Positions 9,670 through 49,468 of a stretch of 64,000 nucleotides of DNA are shown piece after piece. The position numbers and the translations under genes are program-made. The notes under the pieces are model-generated. The model ran no database searches, was not told the origin of the DNA, and saw only the letters and a program-made list of their open reading frames with translations. The stretch comes from Candidatus Colwellbacteria bacterium (lineage in GTDB: Bacteria; Patescibacteriota; Minisyncoccia; UBA6257; Colwellbacteraceae), in contig JACOWZ010000003.1 in NCBI GenBank assembly GCA_016176525.1, positions 256,001 to 320,000 of the forward strand. The letters run 5' to 3'. Each line of letters starts with the position of its first letter. The stretch's first letter is position 1.

Positions 9670-9769
9670 TTGTATAATTTCCAATTTTCCAATTTTCATT
9701 GAATTTAAAAATTTAAATGTTTAAAACATTGAAAATTCATTGCAAAATTTTAAATTGTAAAATTTTTCT

Positions 9770-12088: not shown

Positions 12089-13765
12089 ATGAAATCTAAA
12101 CACGAAGATACAGTTCGCCTAATCCCCCTTGGGGGCCTAGAAGAGGTTGGCCGGAATATGGCCTATATTGAGTATAAAGACGAAATTGTAATTATAGATA
12201 TGGGCATACAGTTCCCCGAAGAAGCAACTCCGGGCGTGGATTTTATTATCCCAAACATAGAGTCTCTAATCCCAAAACGCGAAAACATCCGCGCAGTTGT
12301 TTTAACCCACGGTCACTTTGACCACGTTGGAGCAATACCCTACCTTATGGGCAAGCTTGGCAACCCGCGCATTTACACCACAAAGCTTACAAAGGCCCTT
12401 ATCGAGAAGCGCCAAGAAGACTTTGTTAATGCTCCCAAACTAAAAATAGAAGTAATAAATGTTTGGGACAAAGTTAAAGTCGGCGACCATATAGAGTTGG
12501 AGTTTTTTGGCGTTTACCACACAGTGCCGGACACCGTAGGTGTGGTAGTAAAAACTCCGGCGGCAAACATTGCACACTATGCGGATTTTAGAATTGAATA
12601 CGACGCAAAAGGCAATGCGCAAGATTTAGATGTATTTGAGCGCGTATCAAAGTTAGACATTCACACATTTATGGTGGATTCCACAAACGCAGAAGAGGAG
12701 GGGCGCACTGTTTCGGAAAAAATAGTGGAGCAAAATTTAGAGGAGCTGTTTAAAGCCGCCAAAGGCAGGGTAATACTCTCAACTTTCTCTACTATGCTGA
12801 CTCGCATTGCAGAGATTATAAAAATATGCGAGCGATTGGGCCGCAAAGTGATAATAAATGGCCGGTCTATGAAAGAAGCAATCCAAATTGCGCGCAATCT
12901 TGGCTATATGAAGGTTAAAAAAGAAACAATTGTAGGCGTTGAGGATATGAAAAAGCTTAAAGATAACCAGATTATGATTATTACTACCGGCGCCCAAGGC
13001 CAAGAAAATGCAGGACTCTCGCGCATAGTAAACGGGGAGCACAAGCACATTACAATTAAACCCGGCGACACAATGATATTTTCTTCTTCTGTAATACCTG
13101 GCAACGAGCGTAGCGTGCAAAACCTTAAAGATAATCTTACTCGGCAAGGGGCAATAGTGCACACATCTAAAGTTATAGACATTCACTCCAGCGGCCATGC
13201 GCCGGCAGACGACCTTACAATGACAATAAAGCTAACTAAGCCTAAGTTTGTTGTGCCCGTGCACGGGTATTACTTTATGCGTTCTGCAAACGGGCAGAAT
13301 GCAGTTAAGGCCGGCGTGCCTGCAGAAAACATTCGCCTTATGGACAACGGCCAGGTTGCAATTTTGAGTAAAGACAAGTTTGAAATAACCAAAGAGACTG
13401 TGCCGGCGAACTACGTTATGGTAGACGGGCTTGGCGTGGGTGATGTGGGCGAGATTGTGCTCCGCGACAGGCGAATTTTAGCCCAAGAAGGCATGGTGGT
13501 TGTTATTACCACGATTGACCGCCGAACAGGCAAGCTATTAAAGAACCCGGATATTATCTCTCGCGGGTTTATATACCTTAAAGAAAACCAAGACTTGCTA
13601 AACGAGGTGCGTAAGAAAATTCGCACTCTTGTAGGCAAGATTCCGCGCAAACAATCGCCGGATATTGACTACCTAAAAAATATCTTCCGCGACCAGATTG
13701 GGCAGTTTTTGTACAACAAAACCTTTCGTCGCCCGATGGTTTTGCCAGTAATAATAGAGATCTAG
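12089..13765 (+). CDS. rnj: ribonuclease J (metallo-beta-lactamase / beta-CASP)
   Basis: VRLIPLGGLEEVGRNM..., VLTHGHFDHVGAIPYL (HxHxDH) and a beta-CASP region, 558 aa. Confidence 0.85.
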   Translation: MKSKHEDTVRLIPLGGLEEVGRNMAYIEYKDEIVIIDMGIQFPEEATPGVDFIIPNIESLIPKRENIRAVVLTHGHFDHVGAIPYLMGKLGNPRIYTTKLTKALIEKRQEDFVNAPKLKIEVINVWDKVKVGDHIELEFFGVYHTVPDTVGVVVKTPAANIAHYADFRIEYDAKGNAQDLDVFERVSKLDIHTFMVDSTNAEEEGRTVSEKIVEQNLEELFKAAKGRVILSTFSTMLTRIAEIIKICERLGRKVIINGRSMKEAIQIARNLGYMKVKKETIVGVEDMKKLKDNQIMIITTGAQGQENAGLSRIVNGEHKHITIKPGDTMIFSSSVIPGNERSVQNLKDNLTRQGAIVHTSKVIDIHSSGHAPADDLTMTIKLTKPKFVVPVHGYYFMRSANGQNAVKAGVPAENIRLMDNGQVAILSKDKFEITKETVPANYVMVDGLGVGDVGEIVLRDRRILAQEGMVVVITTIDRRTGKLLKNPDIISRGFIYLKENQDLLNEVRKKIRTLVGKIPRKQSPDIDYLKNIFRDQIGQFLYNKTFRRPMVLPVIIEI

Positions 13766-14742
13766 ACAAGCCCTACTTTTGCGCGAACTTCTTCCATTGT
13801 CTGTGTCGCTATTTTTTGCGCTTTTTTTGCCCCTGCTTGCAACGCGCGCAATATCTCACTTTTTTTCTTTAAGAGTGCCCTGCGCTCTTTTTGTAAAGGA
13901 GCAAGCGCGTTTATTATTACTTCCGCTAGCTCGCGCTTAAAGTCCGCGTATCCGATATCGGCATATTTTTTAACCACTTCTTGTGGCGTTAACCCTGTAA
14001 ATTCGCTGTATATCAAAACCAAATTTGATATCCCCGGTCTTTTTTCGGGGTCATAACCAATACCAGAGAAAGAATCTGTCGTGGCAGACATTACCTTTTT
14101 GCGCATCTCGTCTGCCGAATCGTGCAAAAATAGGCACCCGGAGGGGATAGATTTAGACATTTTCTTCTCTGGGTTATCCAAACTCATAATCCGCTCTGCC
14201 TTAGCTGTTATTGTGCGAGGCTCTTTAAAAGTTTTGCCAAAAGCGCTGTTGAACTTGCGCACAATTTCGCGGGCAAGCTCTATGTGCTGCCTTTGGTCAT
14301 CGCCAACCGGCACTGCCTCTGCTTTGTAGAGTAAAATGTCTGCTGCCATAAGCACAGGGTATGTAAAAAGGCCTACATTCGGCGTCTTGCCTTCCGCAAC
14401 CTTCTCTTTATACGCTGTCATTCTCTGCAAATCCCCCATAGATGTTATTGTGCCTAAAATCCAAGCAAGGTTTGTATGCTCGGGTACGTGCGATTGCACA
14501 AAGAGTATGGATTTCTTTGGGTCAATACCGGCTGCGAGCATATCTATTGCTAAATCCAGGGTTTGCGCTGCGCGTTCTTTTGCGGGTAAGAGCCCAGTCA
14601 TCGCGTGGTAGTCTACTATTGAATAAATACACGTGTAATGCCCTGAGTTTTGCAGCTCCACAGCTTGGCGCAGCATGCCCAAGTAATTCCCAATATGCAA
14701 TTCCCCAGATGGCTGTATACCGCTTACAATTACAGGTTTCAT
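13762..14742 (-). CDS. trpS: tryptophan--tRNA ligase
   Basis: VSGIQPSGELHIGNYLG (HIGH) and KMSKS-like (KMSKS at ...EKKMSKSIP), 326 aa. Confidence 0.9.
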   Translation of the reverse strand: MKPVIVSGIQPSGELHIGNYLGMLRQAVELQNSGHYTCIYSIVDYHAMTGLLPAKERAAQTLDLAIDMLAAGIDPKKSILFVQSHVPEHTNLAWILGTITSMGDLQRMTAYKEKVAEGKTPNVGLFTYPVLMAADILLYKAEAVPVGDDQRQHIELAREIVRKFNSAFGKTFKEPRTITAKAERIMSLDNPEKKMSKSIPSGCLFLHDSADEMRKKVMSATTDSFSGIGYDPEKRPGISNLVLIYSEFTGLTPQEVVKKYADIGYADFKRELAEVIINALAPLQKERRALLKKKSEILRALQAGAKKAQKIATQTMEEVRAKVGLV

Positions 14743-14760
14743 AATTTTAATTTCTAATTT

Positions 14761-15204
14761 CTAAGTTTTAATTTCTAATCAAGTTTTATTGTTTAAAGTT
14801 CTAAGGGTTTTAGCAAAAATTAGTGTCAACTCTTGAGTTTCTTTCCATAGAGCACTAATTTTATCCTTATATTCAGGATAACACTTAGCCAACATTCTAA
14901 GCCAGTGTTTTGTTTCTTCGGATTCTTTCTTCGTAATATGAATTTTATTCTTAAAATCTTTTTTAGAACTCGCTCCATTAGCTTCCGAATAATTAGCGCC
15001 TATACTTGTTCCAGATCTTATTAATTGGTTAATAATTGGTTGAGAAATAGAATTAATTTTTATTTTTTGACATAGATCTATAATATTTTCTCCGAATCGT
15101 GCCGTCCGCTCTTGTAGATCAAACTTATCTTGGACCATGTTATAAACGCATTATACCTAATTAAGCCTTATAACTTAATTCTTGGATAGAAATTAGAACT
15201 TAGG
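14761..15204. mobile_element. inverted-repeat-flanked cassette (MITE-like) carrying a four-helix-bundle protein gene
   Basis: A 23-bp terminal inverted repeat ctaagttttaatttctaatcaag (14761-14783) matches the reverse complement of 15181-15204 (cctaagttctaatttctatccaag) at 20/23 positions. A cargo-less copy of both repeats occurs at 48474-48558. Confidence 0.5.
14779..15138 (-). CDS. four-helix-bundle protein (23S rRNA intervening-sequence protein family)
   Basis: 119 aa, MVQDKFDLQERTARFGENIIDLCQKI...SIGANYSEANG...ETKHWLRML matches the family signature. The stop codon lies inside the left inverted repeat. Confidence 0.75.
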   Translation of the reverse strand: MVQDKFDLQERTARFGENIIDLCQKIKINSISQPIINQLIRSGTSIGANYSEANGASSKKDFKNKIHITKKESEETKHWLRMLAKCYPEYKDKISALWKETQELTLIFAKTLRTLNNKT

Positions 15205-15227
15205 CCTTAAAACTTCCGGATTTGCCT

Positions 15228-15279
15228 TAACGTGGCAATTTTGGTATTCTAAGCGGCAAACGTGTTTTGCCACATGGCA
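15228..15279 (+). promoter_or_regulatory. operator-like palindromes (TTGCCA-N2-TGGCAA and repeated TGGCAA half-sites) over the start of the HTH gene
   Basis: The perfect inverted repeat ttgccaCAtggcaa at 15266-15279 overlaps ATG 15274. There are additional gtggcaa / ggcaaacgtgttttgcc half-sites just upstream. Confidence 0.4.
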
Positions 15280-15987
15280 ACCGCATTTATCTTTATGAAT
15301 TCCACTTCTCAAAAAGCTCACGATATAGCGTTTGCCACATTCCGTGTGGCGGCTCTTGTTGGTCACAGAAAACTTCGCGAAGAACTCCAGAATTCAGCAG
15401 TGGAGCTTGCGGTAAACTACGAGGCAGTTGCAAACCCGGCGCTTGCAAAAAGTGCTACCGTAATCAGCATTTTGGAGCGCCTTATAACTTTGGGCGAATC
15501 AATAAAAGAGATCGGTCCAATAAGTGCAAGGGTTCTAAAAAGGGAACTCGGCAATCTTCAAACGGCAATTAAAGAGGCAAATGCGGCAATTCAAGTGGCA
15601 ACAAGTGGCAAAAAAGAACCTCAAGAGGCAAATTTGGACGACATTTTTGGCTCAAGTGGCAATCTAAACGGCAATCCGCCAGCTGGCGGAGAAGCTAAAA
15701 AATCTGAAGAAACTAAAGAAGCTAATACAGCTAGTCTAGAAGCAACCAAAGAAGCTCTAAGTAGTGTTTCGGAACGGCAAATGGCAATTTTGGAATCCAT
15801 TCGGCAAAACGAATTTTGCCGTTTGCGCAACATTGTAGATGATGTAGACGGCGTAAGCCCCCGCACTATAAGAAACGACATACAAGACCTTATAAATATG
15901 GGCCTCGTAAGGCGCGTAGGCAATGGCGGCCCAGCTAGCTACTTCCAGTTAACGGGCATAAAAACCTCATCTACTGCCCAACTGTAA
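15262..15987 (+). CDS. hypothetical protein with C-terminal winged-helix (DeoR-like) HTH
   Basis: C-terminus ...VSPRTIRNDIQDLINMGLVRRVGNGGPASYFQL looks like a DeoR/HTH_11-type DNA-binding motif. The ORF-track start at 15262 is GTG, and an ATG at 15274 is an alternative. Confidence 0.5.
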   Translation: MFCHMATAFIFMNSTSQKAHDIAFATFRVAALVGHRKLREELQNSAVELAVNYEAVANPALAKSATVISILERLITLGESIKEIGPISARVLKRELGNLQTAIKEANAAIQVATSGKKEPQEANLDDIFGSSGNLNGNPPAGGEAKKSEETKEANTASLEATKEALSSVSERQMAILESIRQNEFCRLRNIVDDVDGVSPRTIRNDIQDLINMGLVRRVGNGGPASYFQLTGIKTSSTAQL

Positions 15988-16160: not shown

Positions 16161-16346
16161 TTAGAACCTTCCCATAGGCATCAGCTTGCCGCCTTAGACT
16201 AAACCTCCGCCCAACCTCACGAGGGCGAGAGAAAATCGCCCCAGGAGGGGCGGAATAAGGGCTTAAGGCAGTTGGTCGATGGTGTTAACCTTGTGGAGGC
16301 GTTACCCAAATTACAAATAAGAAATAAATTAATTACAAATTACAAA

Positions 16347-18353
16347 ATGAGTAAAACACTAAGATTAGGTGTTTTGAGCTCTGCTGTCATTTTGGCTGCA
16401 GTCTTATTGGCTGCTCCAACATTTGCCGCTTACACCCGCGACCTCACTGTGGGTTCAACTGGCACTGACGTAACAGATCTCCAAAACTTCCTAATTTCAA
16501 AATCGGCAGCTATGTGGCCAGCAGGCCAAGCGGCTACCGGTTACTTTGGTCCAATAACTCAAGCCGCTTTGGCAAAATACCAGACTTCGGTCGGTATTAG
16601 CCCAGCAGCCGGTTACTTTGGCCCAATAACACGTGCCCACATGGCCTCAATCGGCCAAACAGGCACAACAGGAACAGGTACAACGACAGAAGCTCTTTGC
16701 CCGAACGGTATGACAATTGCAAGCAATTGTATGACTGCTCCGGCAGGCGCAACTGGCGCAACCTGTCCTAATGGAAACCTAGTTTCCAACAACTGTATGG
16801 CAGCTGGTACAACCGGTTTGAGCGGCACTGTAGGTTCAATAACCATTAACGGTCTTTCAACCTACTCTGCTGAACAAGTTGGCGAAGGCGAGACTGATCA
16901 AAAGGTTATCGCTTTTGAAATTGAGGCAGGCAGTGAGTCCGACATAGAGTTGGTTTCAATGCAAGTTGAGGCCTTCCAGATATCAACAGGAGATGACAGA
17001 GATATGGATGCTTACATGAAAGATGTCTCAATCTGGCTTGGTTCCACAGAAGTTGGCCGGGATAATGTAAGCGCTTTCTCAGAGCCTACTACGAACGACT
17101 TCCAAAGGAACATGGTTTTGAGCGGCGCAAGAATCAATGCTGGCGAGACCAAAACTGTTTACATCGCGGTTTCATCGCTTGACAATATTGACACCGGAGA
17201 CAGCGACACAGATGACTGGGCTGCTGGTGTTGCTACAATTAGGTTTAGAGATGGTTCTGGTGTAACAACCACAAACACCTACACTCTTGATCTAACTGAT
17301 AACGTTGTTGACGACACCATTGAGCAGCAATTTGACTTTGGTTCACTTGCAACGGTTGCTAGCGTTGAGCTAGAGGTTTCTTTGAACACAGCCGATGACG
17401 AAATCAACGAAGCTCACCTTATAAAGGTAAACGCTGGCGCGTCAGACACAAACGACATAGAGCTTCTTTCGTTTAAGATGAAAGCTGAAGGTTCAGCCCT
17501 CCAGGTTACAGAGGTTCCTGTTACACTTACTGTAACTGGTGGTTCAACTACCGAGTCTGACATCTTCAAATCCGCTCACCTTTACAGGGAAGGCGTTAAG
17601 ATTGGCTCGGAAACTGTTGCCGATGGCGGCGCGGTAACTTTTGACAACCTTGATTTCACCATTGCTAAGAACGACACAGAGGACTTCAAGATTCTTGTTG
17701 ATATTCAAGACATTGACGGCAATCTTACTGTGGGCGACACACTTCAGGCTCAAATTACTGCAACCAACGTTAACAACATAACGGTGGAGGACTCGTCTGG
17801 ACAACAGCTTTCCGACGATGATGCAACAGGCACTGCTTTAGCTGAGGCTTCTGAAGTCCGAGTTATCGGATTTGACTTTAGCCTCATAAGCGCGACAGCT
17901 TCTATAACTTCCCCCAGTGATGGAGCGACTGCTGGGTCTAGGGACACTGGTACATATACCATCAAGTTTAACCTTACCGCTTGGGGTGGAGACATCTCTA
18001 TTGACAGGAGTTGTGAAGAGGCTGATGCAGATACGGCTGACCAGGGTATAGAGTTTACTGTTACCAACAACGCATCTAACACCTCCACATGTACGTTTGC
18101 GTCAACTGCTGATGACAACACAGATGACACTGGAGCAGCTTGGTTGATTAGTGAAACCGAAACTAATGAGTTTACTCTTACGGTTGCCTTGCAACCAAGT
18201 ACTGAAGCTGCAGATGATCACTTCTCAAAGGTGTATCTCACTTCAATCAACTGGGATGATGTTGTAACCGACACCTCGCCTGACATCTTTACAACTGCAG
18301 GTTTGGGTGAAGCGGACACATCAACTCCGGAACTCTTCTTGCAAGCTATCTAG
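16347..18353 (+). CDS. large secreted protein with two peptidoglycan-binding-like repeats, a C(P)NGxTxASNC motif pair and a Thr/Asp-rich region
   Basis: Signal peptide MSKTLRLGVLSSAVILAAVLLAAPTFAAYT. PG_binding_1-like repeats (GSTGTDVTDLQNFL...GYFGPITQAALAKYQ, repeated twice). CPNGMTIASNC and CPNGNLVSNNC. The start is moved to ATG 16347, because the ORF-track start at 16272 lies in the leader. Confidence 0.6.
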   Translation: MSKTLRLGVLSSAVILAAVLLAAPTFAAYTRDLTVGSTGTDVTDLQNFLISKSAAMWPAGQAATGYFGPITQAALAKYQTSVGISPAAGYFGPITRAHMASIGQTGTTGTGTTTEALCPNGMTIASNCMTAPAGATGATCPNGNLVSNNCMAAGTTGLSGTVGSITINGLSTYSAEQVGEGETDQKVIAFEIEAGSESDIELVSMQVEAFQISTGDDRDMDAYMKDVSIWLGSTEVGRDNVSAFSEPTTNDFQRNMVLSGARINAGETKTVYIAVSSLDNIDTGDSDTDDWAAGVATIRFRDGSGVTTTNTYTLDLTDNVVDDTIEQQFDFGSLATVASVELEVSLNTADDEINEAHLIKVNAGASDTNDIELLSFKMKAEGSALQVTEVPVTLTVTGGSTTESDIFKSAHLYREGVKIGSETVADGGAVTFDNLDFTIAKNDTEDFKILVDIQDIDGNLTVGDTLQAQITATNVNNITVEDSSGQQLSDDDATGTALAEASEVRVIGFDFSLISATASITSPSDGATAGSRDTGTYTIKFNLTAWGGDISIDRSCEEADADTADQGIEFTVTNNASNTSTCTFASTADDNTDDTGAAWLISETETNEFTLTVALQPSTEAADDHFSKVYLTSINWDDVVTDTSPDIFTTAGLGEADTSTPELFLQAI

Positions 18354-19768: not shown

Positions 19769-21670
19769 ATGCAGAACGCGATTAGGAACATCTTTGTAGT
19801 TGCGGTTTTTTTGTTTCCTCTTTTGTATTTTAAGGCGTTTTTTTTCCCCGCTGTGTATTCCCACGCGGTTTTTATATATTTTATTGCCGAGCTGCTTTTT
19901 CTTTTGTATCTATGGCACGATTTTGGGCGAGGGAAAATTACTTTCAAAAAAAGCTATATAACTATTGCACTTGCGATTTACATAGCCGTTTTGTTTTTAA
20001 CCGCCTTAACGGGCGTTGATTTTGGTAAGTCGTTTTGGTCCAGCTACAACCGAATGACAGGTATTATCACTTGGCTGCACTACTTTGCGCTTTTCTTTGT
20101 GGTTTCTGCGGTTTCTAAGCGTGAGGATTGGAAGTATGTTTTCCGCGCCATAATGCTCTCCGGTGCAGTATTGGCTCTAGTTTCTTGGGTTGGCGAGGAC
20201 GGTTTTAATACGGGGCTATTTCCATATCTTAAAGATGGATCATTTTTGGGCAACAACTCTTACAGTGGTGCATACTTTTTACTAGCATTCTTCTTATCTC
20301 TAATAGGCGTTGTGTTTGAAACTAAGAAAATCTGGAAATGGGTTTATACTGCTGGGCTAGCGGTTATTTTCTTTAATCCGGATATGTTTAATTTTGATGT
20401 TTGGTCCGGAAAAACTTTTAATCTTATTGGCGAGGCCCGAGCATCGTCGGCTGTGGTTTGGATTGGGCTTGCGGTGTTAGGCGCGATTTTTGCGGTATAT
20501 AGATTCGCAAAAAATAAAAAACTTGTAGCCGGCATAGCTGCATTTCTCTTTATAGCTATATTAGGTGTTTACGTATATGGGTTTACATCAATACTCTCCG
20601 GCAAAGGTGTTTTGTATGACAAGTTTTTGGAGATAGATGGACCTGTGCGGCTCACAGTTTGGGATAGCACTATTCAGGGCATTAAAGAACGCCCTATACT
20701 TGGCTATGGGTCAGGAAACTTTGACTATATTTCTGATAGACGCCTTGATCCAAAATTACTAGCACTAGACGAAGATTTGTTCTTTGACCATCCACACAAT
20801 CTTACGCTTGATGTGTTTATTAGTGCAGGTGTTTTGGGAGCTTTGGGAATGTTTTTGATTTTTGCCGCCGCGGCGCATAAGAGTATCAAACTCTATCTAA
20901 AAGAAAATAAATTCTACTTTTTAGTAATTCCACTTGTATTAGTATTGCATTTTCTGCAACTGCAAACATTCTTAGAAGGTCCTGGCTCGCTGCTTCTAGT
21001 TTTTATAATGCTTGCGTTTCTTGCCTCGCGTGAGCCGGATTTAGAGTTGAAAGTTTCCATTCTTAGATTGCGAAATTTATTAAAAACAGGTGCGGTTGTC
21101 GCCTTTATAGTAGCTTCTTATTTGTGGGTATTTGTGCCTACAGAGCAAAATTTGCTCTATATAAAACTGACTTCTGGCGCGACGGTAGAAGAAAGACAGC
21201 AGTTACTACCAAAACTTAAAGAGATTAAAGTTGACCCGCTATATATTATTAATTTGTTGAGTGACGGTTTTATGCGTGGCGCTATGCACTACAGAGACAG
21301 ATTTGACGAGCCTGCTATCAAAGGAGTGCTACAAGGAGAGTTTAAAATGTTTTTGGATACTTACGAAAGTTTTGAGTCGAGATACAAAGATAATTTTAAG
21401 TTTAATTTCCAGTATGGGAAAGTAATAAATGCCGCAAATGCCGTTGGTGTTAATAAATTAGAAAAAGGCGAGGAGATTATACGTAGAGCTATTACCATCT
21501 CCGACCTCTATCCGCACCCATACGCGCTTTTGGCTTTTAATCTTTATTTTCAAGAGAGATACGACGAGGCACTAGAGGTTGCAGAAACGGCTATTACTAA
21601 AGATCCATCGGACAGCAGAGCGCAAACGTTGCGCGATTTGATTATCTCTCGAGCTTTACAACCCCTTTGA
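19769..21670 (+). CDS. O-antigen ligase/polymerase-family (Wzy_C) membrane protein with C-terminal TPR region
   Basis: About 10 TM segments, a DHPHNLTLDVFISAGVLG motif typical of Wzy_C/WaaL, and a soluble TPR-like C-terminus. Confidence 0.6.
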   Translation: MQNAIRNIFVVAVFLFPLLYFKAFFFPAVYSHAVFIYFIAELLFLLYLWHDFGRGKITFKKSYITIALAIYIAVLFLTALTGVDFGKSFWSSYNRMTGIITWLHYFALFFVVSAVSKREDWKYVFRAIMLSGAVLALVSWVGEDGFNTGLFPYLKDGSFLGNNSYSGAYFLLAFFLSLIGVVFETKKIWKWVYTAGLAVIFFNPDMFNFDVWSGKTFNLIGEARASSAVVWIGLAVLGAIFAVYRFAKNKKLVAGIAAFLFIAILGVYVYGFTSILSGKGVLYDKFLEIDGPVRLTVWDSTIQGIKERPILGYGSGNFDYISDRRLDPKLLALDEDLFFDHPHNLTLDVFISAGVLGALGMFLIFAAAAHKSIKLYLKENKFYFLVIPLVLVLHFLQLQTFLEGPGSLLLVFIMLAFLASREPDLELKVSILRLRNLLKTGAVVAFIVASYLWVFVPTEQNLLYIKLTSGATVEERQQLLPKLKEIKVDPLYIINLLSDGFMRGAMHYRDRFDEPAIKGVLQGEFKMFLDTYESFESRYKDNFKFNFQYGKVINAANAVGVNKLEKGEEIIRRAITISDLYPHPYALLAFNLYFQERYDEALEVAETAITKDPSDSRAQTLRDLIISRALQPL

Positions 21671-27356: not shown

Positions 27357-28159
27357 TAGAAGCTTTAAAAAACTGGCTAAGACATAAAGTACATGTGGGC
27401 GGGTTTCTATGGCATATACTAGTCTTTCCGCAAAGGTTTAAACGGCACGGCTTTAGAATTTTTAAGGGTATTTGGGAGGCGCGCGAAACAAAAGCTATGG
27501 TCGCTCCCCTAAAAACTCGGGAGTTTTTAAAAGATCATGTTTCTATCATTATTCAAAGTGCCGGGCGCGTGGAATATTTGCGCAAGACCATTCAGGCGCT
27601 GCGCAAAAATTTTAACTACGATCCAGTAAAGACTCACTGGCTTATAATTGATGATTACCCGGCATCATATGAAACAAGAGATTATATAAAAAGCTTAGAT
27701 TTCTTTGAGAAAGTTATTTTAAACGAGCGCAACCGCGGCATTGGATACTCAATCAACAGAATTTTCGCAGAAGTAAAAAGCGAGTTTGTGTTTTACTGCC
27801 AAGAAGATTTTGAGATTTTGCGCTCTGTGCCTATTGCCAGAATGATTCGAATTATTCGCGAGAATCCTCATTTGAGCCAATTAATGCTACTTGGTGATGA
27901 TATTAAAAAGTTCTCTGGGGCTCGGCAAGTTTCGGTAAGCCATCGCGAAACTTCTGAAATGTTTGGTTTTTGGCCATATCTTGCTTCTATAAAGTTTTTT
28001 AGAGAAAATCTCCCATTTCCTTTTTACTTTACTAACGTGGAATTTAGTTTTAAAGTGCACAGACGAGGTTGGTTAATCTCTGGAGTTTACGCAGAGGAAC
28101 AAGACGCGCCTTATGTAAGACATATTGGAGAAGAAAGAAAAGTATTGGTAGTCAAATGA
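27353..28159 (+). CDS. glycosyltransferase family 2-like protein
   Basis: VSIIIQSAGR...LIIDDYP...NRGIGYSINR...CQEDFE pattern. Confidence 0.45.
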   Translation: MIEALKNWLRHKVHVGGFLWHILVFPQRFKRHGFRIFKGIWEARETKAMVAPLKTREFLKDHVSIIIQSAGRVEYLRKTIQALRKNFNYDPVKTHWLIIDDYPASYETRDYIKSLDFFEKVILNERNRGIGYSINRIFAEVKSEFVFYCQEDFEILRSVPIARMIRIIRENPHLSQLMLLGDDIKKFSGARQVSVSHRETSEMFGFWPYLASIKFFRENLPFPFYFTNVEFSFKVHRRGWLISGVYAEEQDAPYVRHIGEERKVLVVK

Positions 28160-30911: not shown

Positions 30912-31549
30912 TGCAGGAGAAAGATTTCGGACAATCGCAGCGTCAATATGAACAGGGTCGTATTCAATATCGCTTGGCTCTTGAGTTGGTGAAGAATAGG
31001 GGTTTTGGGAAAGTAGTTCTCGATATTGGTGCCGGCAAAGGAGAATTTGCCGATATACTTTCAGAACGCGGGTATAAAGTAAGTTGTGTAGATGGAACAA
31101 AAGAGCTCTGTAAAGAACTTGAAGAAAAAGGATATGAAACAGCGTGTATTGATTTAGAAGAAGAACGTCTGCCTTTTCCAGATAATTCCTTTGATTTAGT
31201 TGTTTCGCTGGAAGTTATAGAGCATCTTTGGAATACAGAGCATTACCTAAAAGAACTGTGGCGAGTTCTGCGCCCAGATGGATATGTGATTCTTACTACT
31301 CCTAATTACAACTTTTGGAGTTTTCGTATACTTTCTTTCCTAGGCTTAGCAGAGAGGTTTCTGACACAGGACTACCATAAGAAACTCTTTACAGCGCATT
31401 CGCTCTCCAAAAGGTTGGGGCCATATTTTACTGTTGAGAAAATTGCGGGACGGGGTATGGTTCCCAAGCTTGGCTTGCACTACCCCGCTCCGGTTTTCCG
31501 CAATTTGTTAGCTATGCATATAGGAGTTCTGTGTAAGCCTAAGAAGTAA
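30908..31549 (+). CDS. class I SAM-dependent methyltransferase
   Basis: VLDIGAGKGEFADIL, LRPDGYVILTTPN. Confidence 0.7.
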   Translation: MMQEKDFGQSQRQYEQGRIQYRLALELVKNRGFGKVVLDIGAGKGEFADILSERGYKVSCVDGTKELCKELEEKGYETACIDLEEERLPFPDNSFDLVVSLEVIEHLWNTEHYLKELWRVLRPDGYVILTTPNYNFWSFRILSFLGLAERFLTQDYHKKLFTAHSLSKRLGPYFTVEKIAGRGMVPKLGLHYPAPVFRNLLAMHIGVLCKPKK

Positions 31550-31561
31550 TTTCTAATTTCT

Positions 31562-33087: not shown

Positions 33088-33118
33088 TATACAAGACTCG
33101 TATAATTTGTTAATATAA

Positions 33119-34120
33119 ATGCAATTTTCAGCTAATTTTATGCCAAATCAAGAGACTGTATTTATCACAGGAGGCGCTGGTTTTTTGGGATCTTACATAA
33201 CCCGCAAGCTTTTGCAACAAGGATATAAGGTTGTTGTATATGATGCGTTTGTTCAATATTCAAACCCTATTGATGGGTTTAATACAGAAGCACAAATTCA
33301 GCGTCGTTTTGATGGAATTAAAGATAAAGTGGTTTTTGTAAGGGGGGATACTACGCATAAATCGTTCTTACAAAAAGCTGTACTTCAGCACAAGCCGTCT
33401 GTAATTATTCATTTGGCGGCACTGCCCATAGCCGACATCGGCGACAAAAATCCTGACGAGGCCAATTCAAGTATTATTGAAGGTACAATTAATATTTTAA
33501 ATATCATGAAAGACGTAGATTTTGTTAAGCGCTTTGTCTATACCTCGTCAAGTATGGTTTATGGGGATTTTGAATACAGCCCCGCCGATGAAGAGCATCC
33601 TAAAAAACCCAAAAGCATATATGGGGCAACAAAATTTGCCGGAGAGATTCTTACAGAGGCATATGGAAGGCGATATAAAATTCCTTATACGATTATAAGA
33701 CCTTCTGCTATTTATGGCCCGGGCGATGTAAATAGGCGTGTTGTGCAAATGTTTTTAGAGAATGCTTTTGTGGACAAGCCGATTAAACTCCACAACGGCG
33801 GCACATCTAAACTAGATTTTTCTTTTGTGGAGGATGTTGCAGATGGTTTTATTCTGGCTGCGTTCCACCCCAAAGCAGAGGGGCAGATTTTCAACATTAC
33901 TAGGGGCGAGGGTAGGCAGCTAAAAGAGCTTGTAGATATTATCCAGAAACTTGTCGGGCATCCGCTAAAAGTTGAAATAACTCCGCCGGATTTTCACCGC
34001 CCGGAGCGTGGAGCATTGAGTATTGAGAAAGCTAGAAAGCTTATCGGATACAATCCGCAGTATTCTCTTGAGCAGGGAGTGGAAAAATATTATAAATTTC
34101 TCAAGCAATTTTATGCGTAA
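33119..34120 (+). CDS. NAD-dependent epimerase/dehydratase
   Basis: VFITGGAGFLGSYITRKL, YGATKFAGE (YxxxK). Confidence 0.7.
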   Translation: MQFSANFMPNQETVFITGGAGFLGSYITRKLLQQGYKVVVYDAFVQYSNPIDGFNTEAQIQRRFDGIKDKVVFVRGDTTHKSFLQKAVLQHKPSVIIHLAALPIADIGDKNPDEANSSIIEGTINILNIMKDVDFVKRFVYTSSSMVYGDFEYSPADEEHPKKPKSIYGATKFAGEILTEAYGRRYKIPYTIIRPSAIYGPGDVNRRVVQMFLENAFVDKPIKLHNGGTSKLDFSFVEDVADGFILAAFHPKAEGQIFNITRGEGRQLKELVDIIQKLVGHPLKVEITPPDFHRPERGALSIEKARKLIGYNPQYSLEQGVEKYYKFLKQFYA

Positions 34121-48473: not shown

Positions 48474-48558
48474 CTAAGTCTTAATTTCTAATCAAGATCT
48501 AATCTCTTAAGACTTAAGTAAGTAAAACTTCAATAGAACTTAAAAATTAGAACTTAGA
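48474..48558. mobile_element. cargo-less copy of the inverted-repeat element (MITE-like)
   Basis: ctaagtcttaatttctaatcaag (48474-48496) matches the 14761 repeat at 22/23 positions. The reverse complement of 48544-48557 matches the right-repeat core ctaagttctaattt at 14/14. Confidence 0.45.
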
Positions 48559-48562
48559 AATT

Positions 48563-49468
48563 ATGTCTCTATGGTATAAGGTTGCCGCCGGTTTGCTTGC
48601 GAGCATGTTTTCTTTGTATGTGCTTTTTGGCCTTGCTATGCCGGCGGATGATTATCTTACTGCTTCTCTTTTTGGCCCCGCCGAGGATTTACAGTCTAGT
48701 ATTAGTGATGAAAGTTTAGACGAGGGTGTTATGATTAATCATAACACCGAGAATTTATCTGTTCAGCCACCTACACCTCCACCTTCTGCGCTAGCACCTC
48801 TTCCACCGCCGGTTTTTTGTCTAAACGGAAACACTGTTGCGTCTAATTGCACAGTTGTTCTTGTGCCGCCTACACCCCTGCCTCAAACTCAACCAACCAC
48901 TCCGCCACCAGTGCCAGTGCCTCCTCCGGTGCCATCGTCTCTTTCACCTCTATTATCACCACCTACCTCTGTATCCAATGAAACTATGATTAATCATAGT
49001 TACGGCGAAAAATGGTATGTAAGCTCGCACCCCTCTGCAAAATATTATTACTGCGAAGAGAGCGATGGATGGAAGAATTTATCAAAAGATTATTTGCAAG
49101 TTTATGATTCCGAGGAGGAATTACTTGAAGATTTTCCAAACCATACATTACACGGTTCGTGCGCTGGTGGCGAAGATGAATCAAAAGCCGAAATTGAAGC
49201 AGAAGTTTCTATAGAACAAAGCAGCGAGCCGGCTGCAGAGCAAGAACAAGGTGTACAAATTGAATGTATTGATATAAATTCTGCTACCAAAGAAGAGTTA
49301 ATGGATATTAAATGGTTAGGCGGACAAGGTATAATAGCGCAAAAAGTGATAGATTCTAGAGAAACTGAAGGTCCGTTTGCGTCAATTGATGATTTAACTC
49401 GTGTGAGTGGTATAGGCGACTCTAAACTTGATGATATTAAACAACAGGGTCTAGCTTGTGTACAATAG
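48563..49468 (+). CDS. secreted or membrane-anchored protein with a CLNGNTVASNC motif, a Pro-rich region and a C-terminal ComEA-like helix-hairpin-helix DNA-binding domain
   Basis: N-terminal TM segment. VFCLNGNTVASNCTVV. C-terminus IDINSATKEELMDIKWLGGQGIIAQKVIDSRETEGPFASIDDLTRVSGIGDSKLDDIKQQG resembles the ComEA HhH domain. Confidence 0.6.
   Translation: MSLWYKVAAGLLASMFSLYVLFGLAMPADDYLTASLFGPAEDLQSSISDESLDEGVMINHNTENLSVQPPTPPPSALAPLPPPVFCLNGNTVASNCTVVLVPPTPLPQTQPTTPPPVPVPPPVPSSLSPLLSPPTSVSNETMINHSYGEKWYVSSHPSAKYYYCEESDGWKNLSKDYLQVYDSEEELLEDFPNHTLHGSCAGGEDESKAEIEAEVSIEQSSEPAAEQEQGVQIECIDINSATKEELMDIKWLGGQGIIAQKVIDSRETEGPFASIDDLTRVSGIGDSKLDDIKQQGLACVQ

Follow-up and report, generated by a model that had tools for sequence, protein, structure and literature searches.

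A candidate mRNA-spacer counterpart of the 23S rRNA intervening sequence: a four-helix-bundle gene between inverted heptad arrays in Patescibacteria

INTRODUCTION

The four-helix-bundle family PF05635/TIGR02436 is named after the intervening sequences (IVSs) of 23S rRNA. What, then, is one of its genes doing between two protein-coding genes? The gene in question lies in a 64,000-nt stretch of Candidatus Colwellbacteria DNA (assembly GCA_016176525.1, contig JACOWZ010000003.1, positions 256,001–320,000; this whole stretch is called the window), where an open reading frame (ORF) for a 119-residue protein, bracketed by inverted repeats, stands between trpS and a divergent DeoR-like gene. The family has no characterised function (PMC11270868; PMC4990558) and is carried by IVSs, also within rRNA genes of the candidate phyla radiation/Patescibacteria (PMC11270868), and its genes have been discussed as cas-associated, being found in cas loci (PMC3936711).

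An earlier note on this DNA had described the locus as an autonomous cassette resembling a miniature inverted-repeat transposable element (MITE), with a miniature derivative elsewhere in the window. We favor another reading, to which we assign a probability of about 0.6: the element would be an IVS-type cassette that resides in mRNA spacers and whose stem is probably cut by RNase III, that is, the mRNA-spacer counterpart of the classical IVS.

RESULTS

A four-helix-bundle gene between two heptad arrays

The gene occupies positions 14779–15138 on the minus strand (ATG 15138–15136, TGA 14781–14779). Judged by its sequence, the product is clearly a member of the four-helix-bundle (23S rRNA IVS protein) family, with matches to PF05635 (E 4.5e-15, 56.2 bits) and TIGR02436 (E 1e-21, 77.1 bits) that lie above the curated cut-offs of 33.8 and 24, respectively. 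The conserved family motif, GxxRxxxSxxxNxxE (PMC3936711), is present as R41-x3-S45-x3-N49-x2-E52, and these four residues are invariant or nearly so across an alignment of 20 sequences. Among solved structures, the closest in sequence is 2RLD from Bacteroides (E 5.6e-14), an entry with five chains. A homologue search with the protein returned 5919 matches; no other PF05635 gene is found in the window.

The earlier note had placed this gene between 23-bp inverted repeats, and 14761–14783 is indeed identical to the reverse complement of 15181–15204 at 20 of 23 positions. A repeat search extends the pair to 40-nt arms (14749–14788 and 15176–15215) that are 75% complementary. Within these, the 35-nt inverted arms 14749–14783 and 15181–15215 each consist of four tandem heptads (AAnTTCT) and a closing heptad (A[A/T][T/C]CAAG), a make-up that the note had not mentioned. 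In the orientation of the gene, the 5' arm (15181–15215, minus strand) reads AAGTTTT AAGGCCT AAGTTCT AATTTCT ATCCAAG, four heptads and the closing one, and the 3' arm (14743–14783, minus strand) is the reverse complement of AATTTT AATTTCT AATTTCT AAGTTTT AATTTCT AATCAAG. The 3' arm overlaps the stop codon of the four-helix-bundle gene (TGA 14779–14781), as the note had claimed, and abuts the trpS start codon (14742–14740); the array fills the entire spacer, which had also gone unremarked. The whole unit measures about 470 bp. Tandem Repeats Finder reports a period of 7 at 14737–14779 (6.1 copies), 15187–15215 and 48534–48563, with arrays ending at the ATG of trpS and at that of a comEA-like gene.

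The repeats are beyond chance expectation. The sequence CTAAGTTCTAATTT, with up to two mismatches allowed, matches seven times compared to 1.2 expected, a count reached in 0 of 100 shuffles, and a heptad-array detector run over the 64 kb finds the four arms alone (the pair around the gene and a pair near 48.5 kb), compared to ∼0.05 in shuffles. Rfam annotates only a tmRNA and a tRNA in the whole window, so that the arms are covered by no known RNA family and no rRNA gene is present. We also considered the arms as a sigma-70 promoter and rejected this, as the hexamer spacing did not fit on inspection by hand and a consensus scan gave scores at chance level.

The layout is shared by relatives in diverse contexts

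A scan of public metagenomes gave 80 loci encoding proteins 60–73% identical to the window protein, 75 of them with enough flanking sequence. In these 75, the 150 nt preceding the gene were compared with the reverse complement of the 150 nt following it, and in about 70 the two flanks have a heptad-built inverted repeat in common, with z scores typically of 5–24. The arms nearly always comprise four heptads and a closing AAT[C/G/A]AAT; AATTTTG, AATTTTC and AATTTCT are the commonest heptads, AATCAAT or ATTGAAT the commonest closers, and the core AATTT is invariant while positions 6 and 7 vary. The ORFs are full length in ∼76 of the 80 relatives, with the family motif intact (L037, L047, L079 and L081 were called truncated).

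The cassette occupies intercistronic spacers, beginning at the stop codon of the preceding gene and ending a few bases short of the following start codon, and is usually co-oriented with the flanking genes. The median distance between the preceding stop codon and the 5' array is 0 nt, and that between the 3' array and the following ATG is 8 nt; ∼88% of neighbors, as read from the neighbor table, are on the same strand, upstream and downstream alike. Contexts are very diverse, with 133 neighboring ORFs falling into 96 similarity clusters. No rRNA gene is present in any of 78 scanned related loci (0/78); the earlier statement that the family is usually embedded in 23S IVSs thus reflects the name of the family rather than its distribution.

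Across 288 kb of related loci there are ∼150 arrays, of which ∼110 (read from the listing) flank four-helix-bundle ORFs. The remainder include ORF-less convergent pairs (e.g. L029, 1672/1812), some with GC-rich hairpins inside. When species-representative genomes were searched with the arm motif, five matches were obtained; one, in a nusB–rnc spacer of Saccharibacteria, was a real relative, and a match in Woesebacteria looked like chance. In that Saccharibacteria metagenome-assembled genome (CAZDDE010000004; L002, 5910–6050), which represents a different class of Patescibacteria, nusB and the start codon of the RNase III gene, both recognised by eye, are separated by an ORF-less palindrome of CTAATTT heptads that includes the exact 21-mer of the window arm.

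Arm–ORF–arm behaves as a discrete unit

Near-identical cassettes are found in unrelated surroundings. Those of L010 and L013 are 98% identical in DNA sequence, with similarity spanning from the outer end of the 5' arm to within the 3' arm and unrelated flanks beyond; those of L058 and L083 are 90% identical, with the same boundaries and again unrelated flanks. L020 and L021 represent one locus, at which the cassette is 98% identical and the neighboring genes 68–78%, as after recent recombination.

Sites with and without a cassette can also be compared. The block iPGM–holin–SecG–SBP–RNase J–trpS of the window is kept in two Colwellbacteria-like genomes, A and B. Two cassettes lie inside this conserved block in genome A, at sites where genome B and the window have none. 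The first has CTAATTT-type arms like those of the window; the second encodes a classical S23-type protein, marked PF22296 (bAvd) in precomputed annotation, and has TTAGCTTG-type arms. In genome B, the SecG–SBP spacer is 26 nt long and contains a single array. Upstream of trpS, related genomes have ileS or RNase J and no cassette. Comparison of two related genomes (L096, 9900–11000, versus L100, 6600–8000) shows an inversion, between ileS and the RNase J gene, that is limited to trpS, and the RNase J–trpS spacer of genome A is an ORF-less palindrome of TTAGCTTG-type units.

Two Nostoc plasmids, with flanking proteins 91–96% identical, provide a reciprocal case. They carry two different cassettes at adjacent junctions of one operon, with proteins 43% identical and arms of the GTCAGGA type in one and the AAAGGGG type in the other. 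Each plasmid has the other's site empty, reading 'TAG GTT ATG' and 'TAA TTT ATG', and comparison of filled with empty sites shows that both arms arrive together with the ORF.

Arm–ORF–arm is hence a discrete, family-wide unit, found at different sites in related genomes. The earlier suggestion that such cassettes are mobile beyond rRNA genes is supported by the absence of rRNA genes from the 78 loci, the diversity of contexts, the near-identical copies in unrelated flanks and the filled and empty sites. The manner of movement proposed there fares less well. Target-site duplications, which had been put forward as a check, are absent at the window boundaries and at every other boundary inspected, namely those of the shared-unit pairs and of the empty/filled pairs, including the Nostoc ones. 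There is no transposase gene in the cassette and none recurrently beside cassettes, and the arms differ in sequence among cassettes of a single genome or plasmid, a misfit with one transposase acting on shared termini. Nor is the element 'autonomous' in any evident sense, as its only product is the 119-residue four-helix-bundle protein, which has no known mobility activity.

The arms are predicted to form an RNA stem

Folding of the repeat pair, another check suggested in the earlier note, gave a positive result. In the minimum-free-energy fold of the 491-nt window transcript, the 5' and 3' arms pair over 27 bp. The arm duplex has a predicted energy of −23.5 kcal/mol, compared to −6.5 ± 2.2 for shuffled sequences, and 0 of 500 shuffles reach this value. 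More generally, 55 of 71 cassettes have a minimum-free-energy fold in which 15 bp or more join the two flanks, and cognate arms pair more strongly (−31.1 kcal/mol) than non-cognate arms (−25.7; P = 4e-6) or shuffled ones (−17.4).

These data fit a simple scheme, in which the cassette would be a PF05635 ORF inside two inverted heptad arrays, placed in short spacers between protein-coding genes and transcribed by read-through. Pairing of the 5' array, which is U-rich, with the 3' array, which is A-rich, would give a stem of ∼25–35 bp that loops out the ORF, and RNase III would then cut the stem, freeing the cassette RNA from the flanking cistrons. By analogy with rRNA IVSs, RNase III excision from a read-through transcript is probably the most economical mechanism. 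Separation of the cassette RNA in this way would allow insertion to be tolerated inside tight operons and would explain the preference for co-orientation.

In the window, transcription is a special case. The trpS gene (13762–14742, minus strand; PF00579, E 2.6e-74) is probably co-transcribed with the cassette, which would head the trpS transcription unit. As the upstream gene is divergent, the cassette, at the head of that unit, probably uses a promoter of its own. The earlier note had pointed to a TATAAT just inside the right repeat, and this box is present at 15155–15150 on the minus strand, in the spacer between the 5' arm and the ATG (15139–15180), 11 nt 5' of the ATG; it is probably the cassette's own promoter. 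A consensus promoter scan missed it, since no −35 box with at least four of six matches is found. In most relatives, the spacer between 5' arm and ATG is just 12 nt (exactly this distance separates arm and ATG in 17 of 48 cassettes) and a promoter is absent.

Other arrays in the window

The repeats recur ∼33 kb away, as had been reported, with arms at 48474–48496 and 48528–48562 and a gap of 31 nt rather than the ∼45 given. This ORF-less pair of cassette-type arms (48474–48562, minus strand) fills the spacer between a trxB-like and the comEA-like gene. One arm (48474–48496) reads CT AAGTCTT AATTTCT AATCAAG, and the reverse complement of the other (48528–48562) is AATTTCT AAGTTCT AATTTTT AAGTTCT ATTGAAG. 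The duplex of the two arms has a predicted energy of −18.5 kcal/mol as minus-strand RNA, reached by 1 of 500 shuffles, and −10.4 as plus-strand RNA. Pairing with the cassette's arms is even stronger, at −30.2 and −27.8 kcal/mol. This pair had been taken for a miniature derivative of the cassette. We rejected an origin by internal deletion, as the arms alone are shared and the interior, of 31–32 nt, is no more similar to that of the cassette than shuffled sequence is (score 15 versus 15.6).

A weaker ORF-less palindrome at 9670–9769 fills the spacer between the iPGM and holin_4_2 genes and is built of AT-rich units of 7–8 nt (AATTTCC AATTTTCC AATTTTC ATTGAA ...). Its duplex has a predicted energy of −12.5 kcal/mol, compared to −5.6 for shuffled sequences, 3 of 500 of which reach it. 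The pairs at 48.5 and 9.7 kb may represent the same stem without cargo.

Single arrays occur as well. One, of CAAATTA-type heptads (16300–16347, plus strand), abuts the start codon ATG 16348, and another, of two heptads TAATTTC TAATTTC (31546–31561, plus strand), fills a 12-nt stop-to-start spacer. Both resemble published heptamer repeats that precede start codons in other phyla. Altogether, heptad-type arrays are found at ∼5 of the ∼25 intergenic sites of the window, and arm pairs number two or three, the cassette itself being coding. The earlier note had named a motif present at most intergenic sites as something that would speak against its reading; that situation is partly approached, though the arrays are at a minority of sites.

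The same layout in other phyla

To cover other phyla, we used a plasmid sample of 16 loci with PF05635 ORFs, from Calothrix, Pseudanabaena, Anabaena, Stanieria, Nostoc, Geminocystis, Picosynechococcus, Aulosira, Riemerella, Gemmatirosa and Azospirillum. Nearly all of the genes, on cyanobacterial, Bacteroidota, Gemmatimonadota and Azospirillum plasmids alike, have heptad arrays upstream and the reverse complements downstream. The units are quite unlike those of Patescibacteria, and include GGAGTAG, ACAGGTG, CAGGGAA, AAAAGCT, TAGGGTG, AAGGTTC and CAGAGGA. Within 200 nt of the ORF ends, a zone that makes up 4.5% of the sequence, arrays of period 7 show strong enrichment (26 near versus 36 elsewhere; P = 4e-19). 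Periods 5 and 9 are unenriched, and periods 6 and 8 only weakly enriched (P = 0.03 and 7e-4). Unit counts are fixed at 4 + 1 within the Patescibacteria subfamily and range from 5 to 17 outside it, so the idea that five heptads equal one pentamer, which we considered, holds in that subfamily alone and was dropped.

Several cassettes are wedged into tight functional operons of cyanobacterial plasmids: between cas6 and cas4 (L104, L105), cas10 and cmr3 (L110), the ribonucleotide reductase beta and alpha genes (L109), a parA-like gene and parB (L112) or conjugation genes (L113). In L110 and L114, gaps of ∼35–40 nt lie on each side of the cassette.

Neighboring genes and further observations

The gene on the other side of the cassette (15262–15987, divergent to it) encodes a protein with a DeoR-type helix-turn-helix and has an orthologue in all three genomes. 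The N-terminal half of the protein is helical and uncharacterised (window 15262–15987; L096, 2360–2962; L102, 11239–11979). We considered this half as a four-helix-bundle domain and ruled that out (hhalign probability 0.3%). In both the window and genome A, the conserved gene is the divergent neighbor of a four-helix-bundle cassette; its neighbor in genome B is an ORF-less spacer rich in arrays. Annotation of anti-phage defense with PADLOC gave nothing meaningful.

TATAAT boxes 6–8 nt before an ATG, without a Shine-Dalgarno sequence, were seen at window genes at 19769, 25656 and 45164 and in L096 (5040–5054), suggesting that mRNAs of the lineage are commonly leaderless or nearly so. Two stretches of the window, 27357–28068 and 33088–34022, look like coding sequence, with glycosyltransferase-like and epimerase-like starts, and the non-overlapping gene map shows no ORF of at least 100 aa in either. 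Frameshifts or pseudogenes may account for this, or it may be an artefact of that map.

Among the related loci, a second repeat family was noticed, made of GC-rich palindromes of the CCTGCCTGCCGGCAGGCAGG type (L013, ∼2760–2785; L030, ∼1685–1705; L087, 4990–5300). In L013, such a palindrome interrupts the 3' arm of the cassette. L070 (1480–3400), and also L065, contains a cassette-bearing segment of ∼1.5 kb twice, 100% identical, by tandem duplication or assembly artefact. In L039 (1490–1580), an extra 5'-arm-like array, an ATG and a truncated stretch lie between the ORF and the 3' arm, and look like the remnant of a second, nested cassette.

DISCUSSION

Relation to known elements

Inverted-repeat units in intercistronic spacers are known from REP/BIME and from the Correia elements of Neisseria. 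These are co-transcribed and processed, and copies without an ORF occur. Correia elements are RNase III substrates with fixed terminal inverted repeats and TA duplications, and REPs depend on RAYT transposases. The cassette resembles both in placing inverted repeats between cistrons and differs in its heptad arrays and conserved ORF; to our knowledge, neither REP/BIME nor Correia elements are built of tandem heptads or carry a conserved ORF.

Further parallels are found among intergenic heptamer repeats. Cyanobacterial STRR heptamers were reportedly described by Mazel in 1990. TAACTGA repeats occur between genes in Beggiatoaceae, Cyanobacteria and Bacteroidetes (PMC4679880), and TTTTGAA/TTCAAAA repeats in Nostoc 7120 (bioRxiv 10.1101/2022.06.06.494920). 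Like the arrays described here, these are intergenic direct repeats of period 7 with variable copy number, typically ending a few bases from a start codon, and the TTTTGAA unit is that of most Patescibacteria arms. Unlike them, they have been published as lone arrays, without inverted pairs around a PF05635 gene, and neither paper names this family (PMC4679880; bioRxiv 10.1101/2022.06.06.494920).

The protein has a relative of its own in Avd (bAvd, PDB 4DWL), an accessory protein of diversity-generating retroelements that is related to PF05635 (PMC10053308). Both belong to a homologous four-helix-bundle fold family, and PF22296 is marked on the second cassette of genome A. Unlike an Avd gene, the window gene stands alone between heptad arrays. 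Its neighborhood includes trpS, RNase J, the DeoR-like gene, and cell-wall and sugar-metabolism genes, with no reverse transcriptase (RT) domain listed; the genes called over ∼10 kb on the DeoR side and those identified toward trpS include no RT, nor was a template/variable repeat pair noticed.

The best match is the S23p-type IVS. In Coxiella burnetii, this 23S rRNA element is 428–444 nt long and has a 28-bp terminal stem within which RNase III cuts; three tandem heptamers (GACAGAT) and a degenerate fourth directly precede the S23p ATG, the 5' cut is at the first heptamer repeat, and strains differ in copy number (PMC4990558). S23p-encoding IVSs are also found in Leptospira, according to Ralph and McClelland 1993 as cited there (PMC4990558). 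The window cassette, at ∼470 nt, is of similar size. Like the IVS, it has one PF05635 ORF, of ∼120 aa, inside terminal inverted repeats, which would form a stem of ∼28–35 bp around it, and tandem heptamers (three to four and a degenerate one) just before the ATG. Further points in common are a sporadic distribution from which horizontal transfer is inferred, and an ORF long suspected of a link to mobility. The differences are that the site of the cassette is an mRNA spacer, with trpS on one side and the DeoR-like gene on the other, rather than 23S helix 25 or 45, that its heptads are AT-rich and accompanied by a promoter-like box of its own, and that its excision by RNase III without re-ligation is a prediction from the rRNA case. 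In addition, the ORF family looks conserved here, whereas the Coxiella authors regard S23p as expendable (PMC4990558).

Weighing the explanations

Several observations weigh against an IVS-type cassette with an RNase III-cut stem. A strand-specific wobble signature is absent, with 55 G·U-type and 58 A·C-type mismatches in 2155 arm columns. There is also no register-specific covariation, identity at variable positions being 0.606 in register and 0.617 out of register, and so selection acting on individual base pairs is not demonstrated; two arms that are both arrays of one unit could be complementary for that reason alone. The promoter-like TATAAT box of the window lies interior to the 5' arm, and a transcript started there would be without this arm and unable to form the stem. 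Single heptad arrays also precede the start codons of ordinary genes, which points to an array function independent of a partner arm. As plus-strand RNA, the strand of the flanking genes, the hairpin at 48.5 kb folds unexceptionally (z = −0.6). The closest trpS available is only 66% identical, and insertion at the window locus is deduced from more distant genomes. Finally, RNase III cutting of non-rRNA cassettes, while probable, is argued by analogy with the Coxiella IVS.

The main rival is that the arrays are putative cis binding sites, on RNA or DNA, for a protein, possibly an oligomer of the cassette's own four-helix-bundle product, which would make the gene autoregulated. The arrays would then belong to a wider start-codon-proximal set that controls translation or transcription, and their inversion would serve protein binding or occlusion of the ribosome-binding site rather than RNase III. 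We consider this rather unlikely, though it could hold alongside the IVS-type reading. It accounts well for the single arrays that abut ordinary start codons, both in the window (16300–16347 and 31546–31561) and in the SecG–SBP spacer of genome B and the iPGM–holin spacer of genome A, and it agrees with the published heptamer direct repeats that end 1 nt before start codons, for which a translational role has been proposed (PMC4679880). It can also draw on the identity of the published TTTTGAA unit with most Patescibacteria arms, on the invariant AATTT core with varying positions 6–7 and no covariation, on the fixed 4 + 1 heptads of the Patescibacteria subfamily, and on the five chains of 2RLD. 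Furthermore, where the host uses Shine-Dalgarno sequences, the 5' arrays are rich in purines and resemble such sequences (GGAGTAG, GTCAGGA, CAGGGAA), with complementary 3' arrays. However, the units are wholly different between cassettes whose proteins are 40–50% identical, even within one replicon, so a single host factor cannot recognise all arrays; unit number outside the Patescibacteria subfamily (5–17) is not five; and binding sites alone give no account of both arms traveling with the ORF as one insertion.

A second rival takes the arms to be terminal inverted repeats recognised by a transposase acting in trans, with the four-helix-bundle gene as cargo and the 48.5-kb element as a miniature derivative. 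Discrete units bounded by inverted repeats and ORF-less pairs with matching arms in one genome are what a MITE-like system would leave, and many related genes are on short contigs, as expected of assembly-breaking repeats, a weak point given that most metagenome contigs are short anyway. We nonetheless regard this as improbable: to the duplications, missing also at two clean empty/filled pairs, the missing transposase, the arms that differ within one genome or plasmid and the unrelated interior of the smaller element must be added that the arms are tandem arrays of variable unit, and outside the Patescibacteria subfamily of variable copy number, rather than fixed termini, and that insertion is confined to stop-to-start spacers and co-oriented with the operon. 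Least credible, and in our view very improbable, is an ordinary, vertically inherited gene whose flanks resemble each other merely as insignificant low-complexity sequence. The genome is AT-rich between genes, the 48.5-kb hairpin folds no better than shuffles on the plus strand, and genome A, too, has a four-helix-bundle gene beside its orthologue of the DeoR-like gene, possibly a sign of long residence there. Yet the window protein is nearer to proteins from unrelated contexts (60–82% identity) than to that DeoR-adjacent one (53–59%), shuffle statistics argue against chance, the architecture recurs in ∼70 of 75 relatives and across phyla with unrelated units, and near-identical cassettes in unrelated flanks coexist with empty sites. 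On balance, we retain the IVS-type cassette.

A broader and more doubtful proposal is that PF05635 genes and tandem heptamers form one cross-phylum system, the arrays being the cis elements and an Avd-like oligomeric protein the trans partner. In one variant, the protein would bind the arrays and thereby control translation or processing. In the other, insertion between stop and start codons without target duplications would be RNA-mediated, by analogy with Avd as a cofactor of reverse transcriptase.

Implications

In the searchable, mostly non-subscription literature, heptamer-armed PF05635 cassettes in intercistronic spacers, with filled and empty sites, are undescribed, and a prior description elsewhere is possible. 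The IVS design, in which inverted arms built of heptamers enclose a four-helix-bundle ORF, is not confined to rRNA but is the general packaging of the PF05635 family, the usual home of which is the spacer between protein-coding genes.

For gene annotation, the cassettes are a caution against guilt by association. The four-helix-bundle genes found inside cas, ribonucleotide reductase, partition and conjugation operons are probably insertions, and predictions of function based on such neighborhoods may be misled. The insertions themselves pose a mechanistic problem, as entry into a gap of three bases between stop and start codon, with no duplication, is unexplained by the standard transposition mechanisms that we considered.

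Two unexplained features, the PF05635 family and intergenic heptamer repeats, are here tied together, and through this link both become approachable by experiment. If the two do form a single system, the heptamer arrays of Cyanobacteria, Bacteroidetes, Beggiatoaceae and now Patescibacteria would be orphans that gain a partner.

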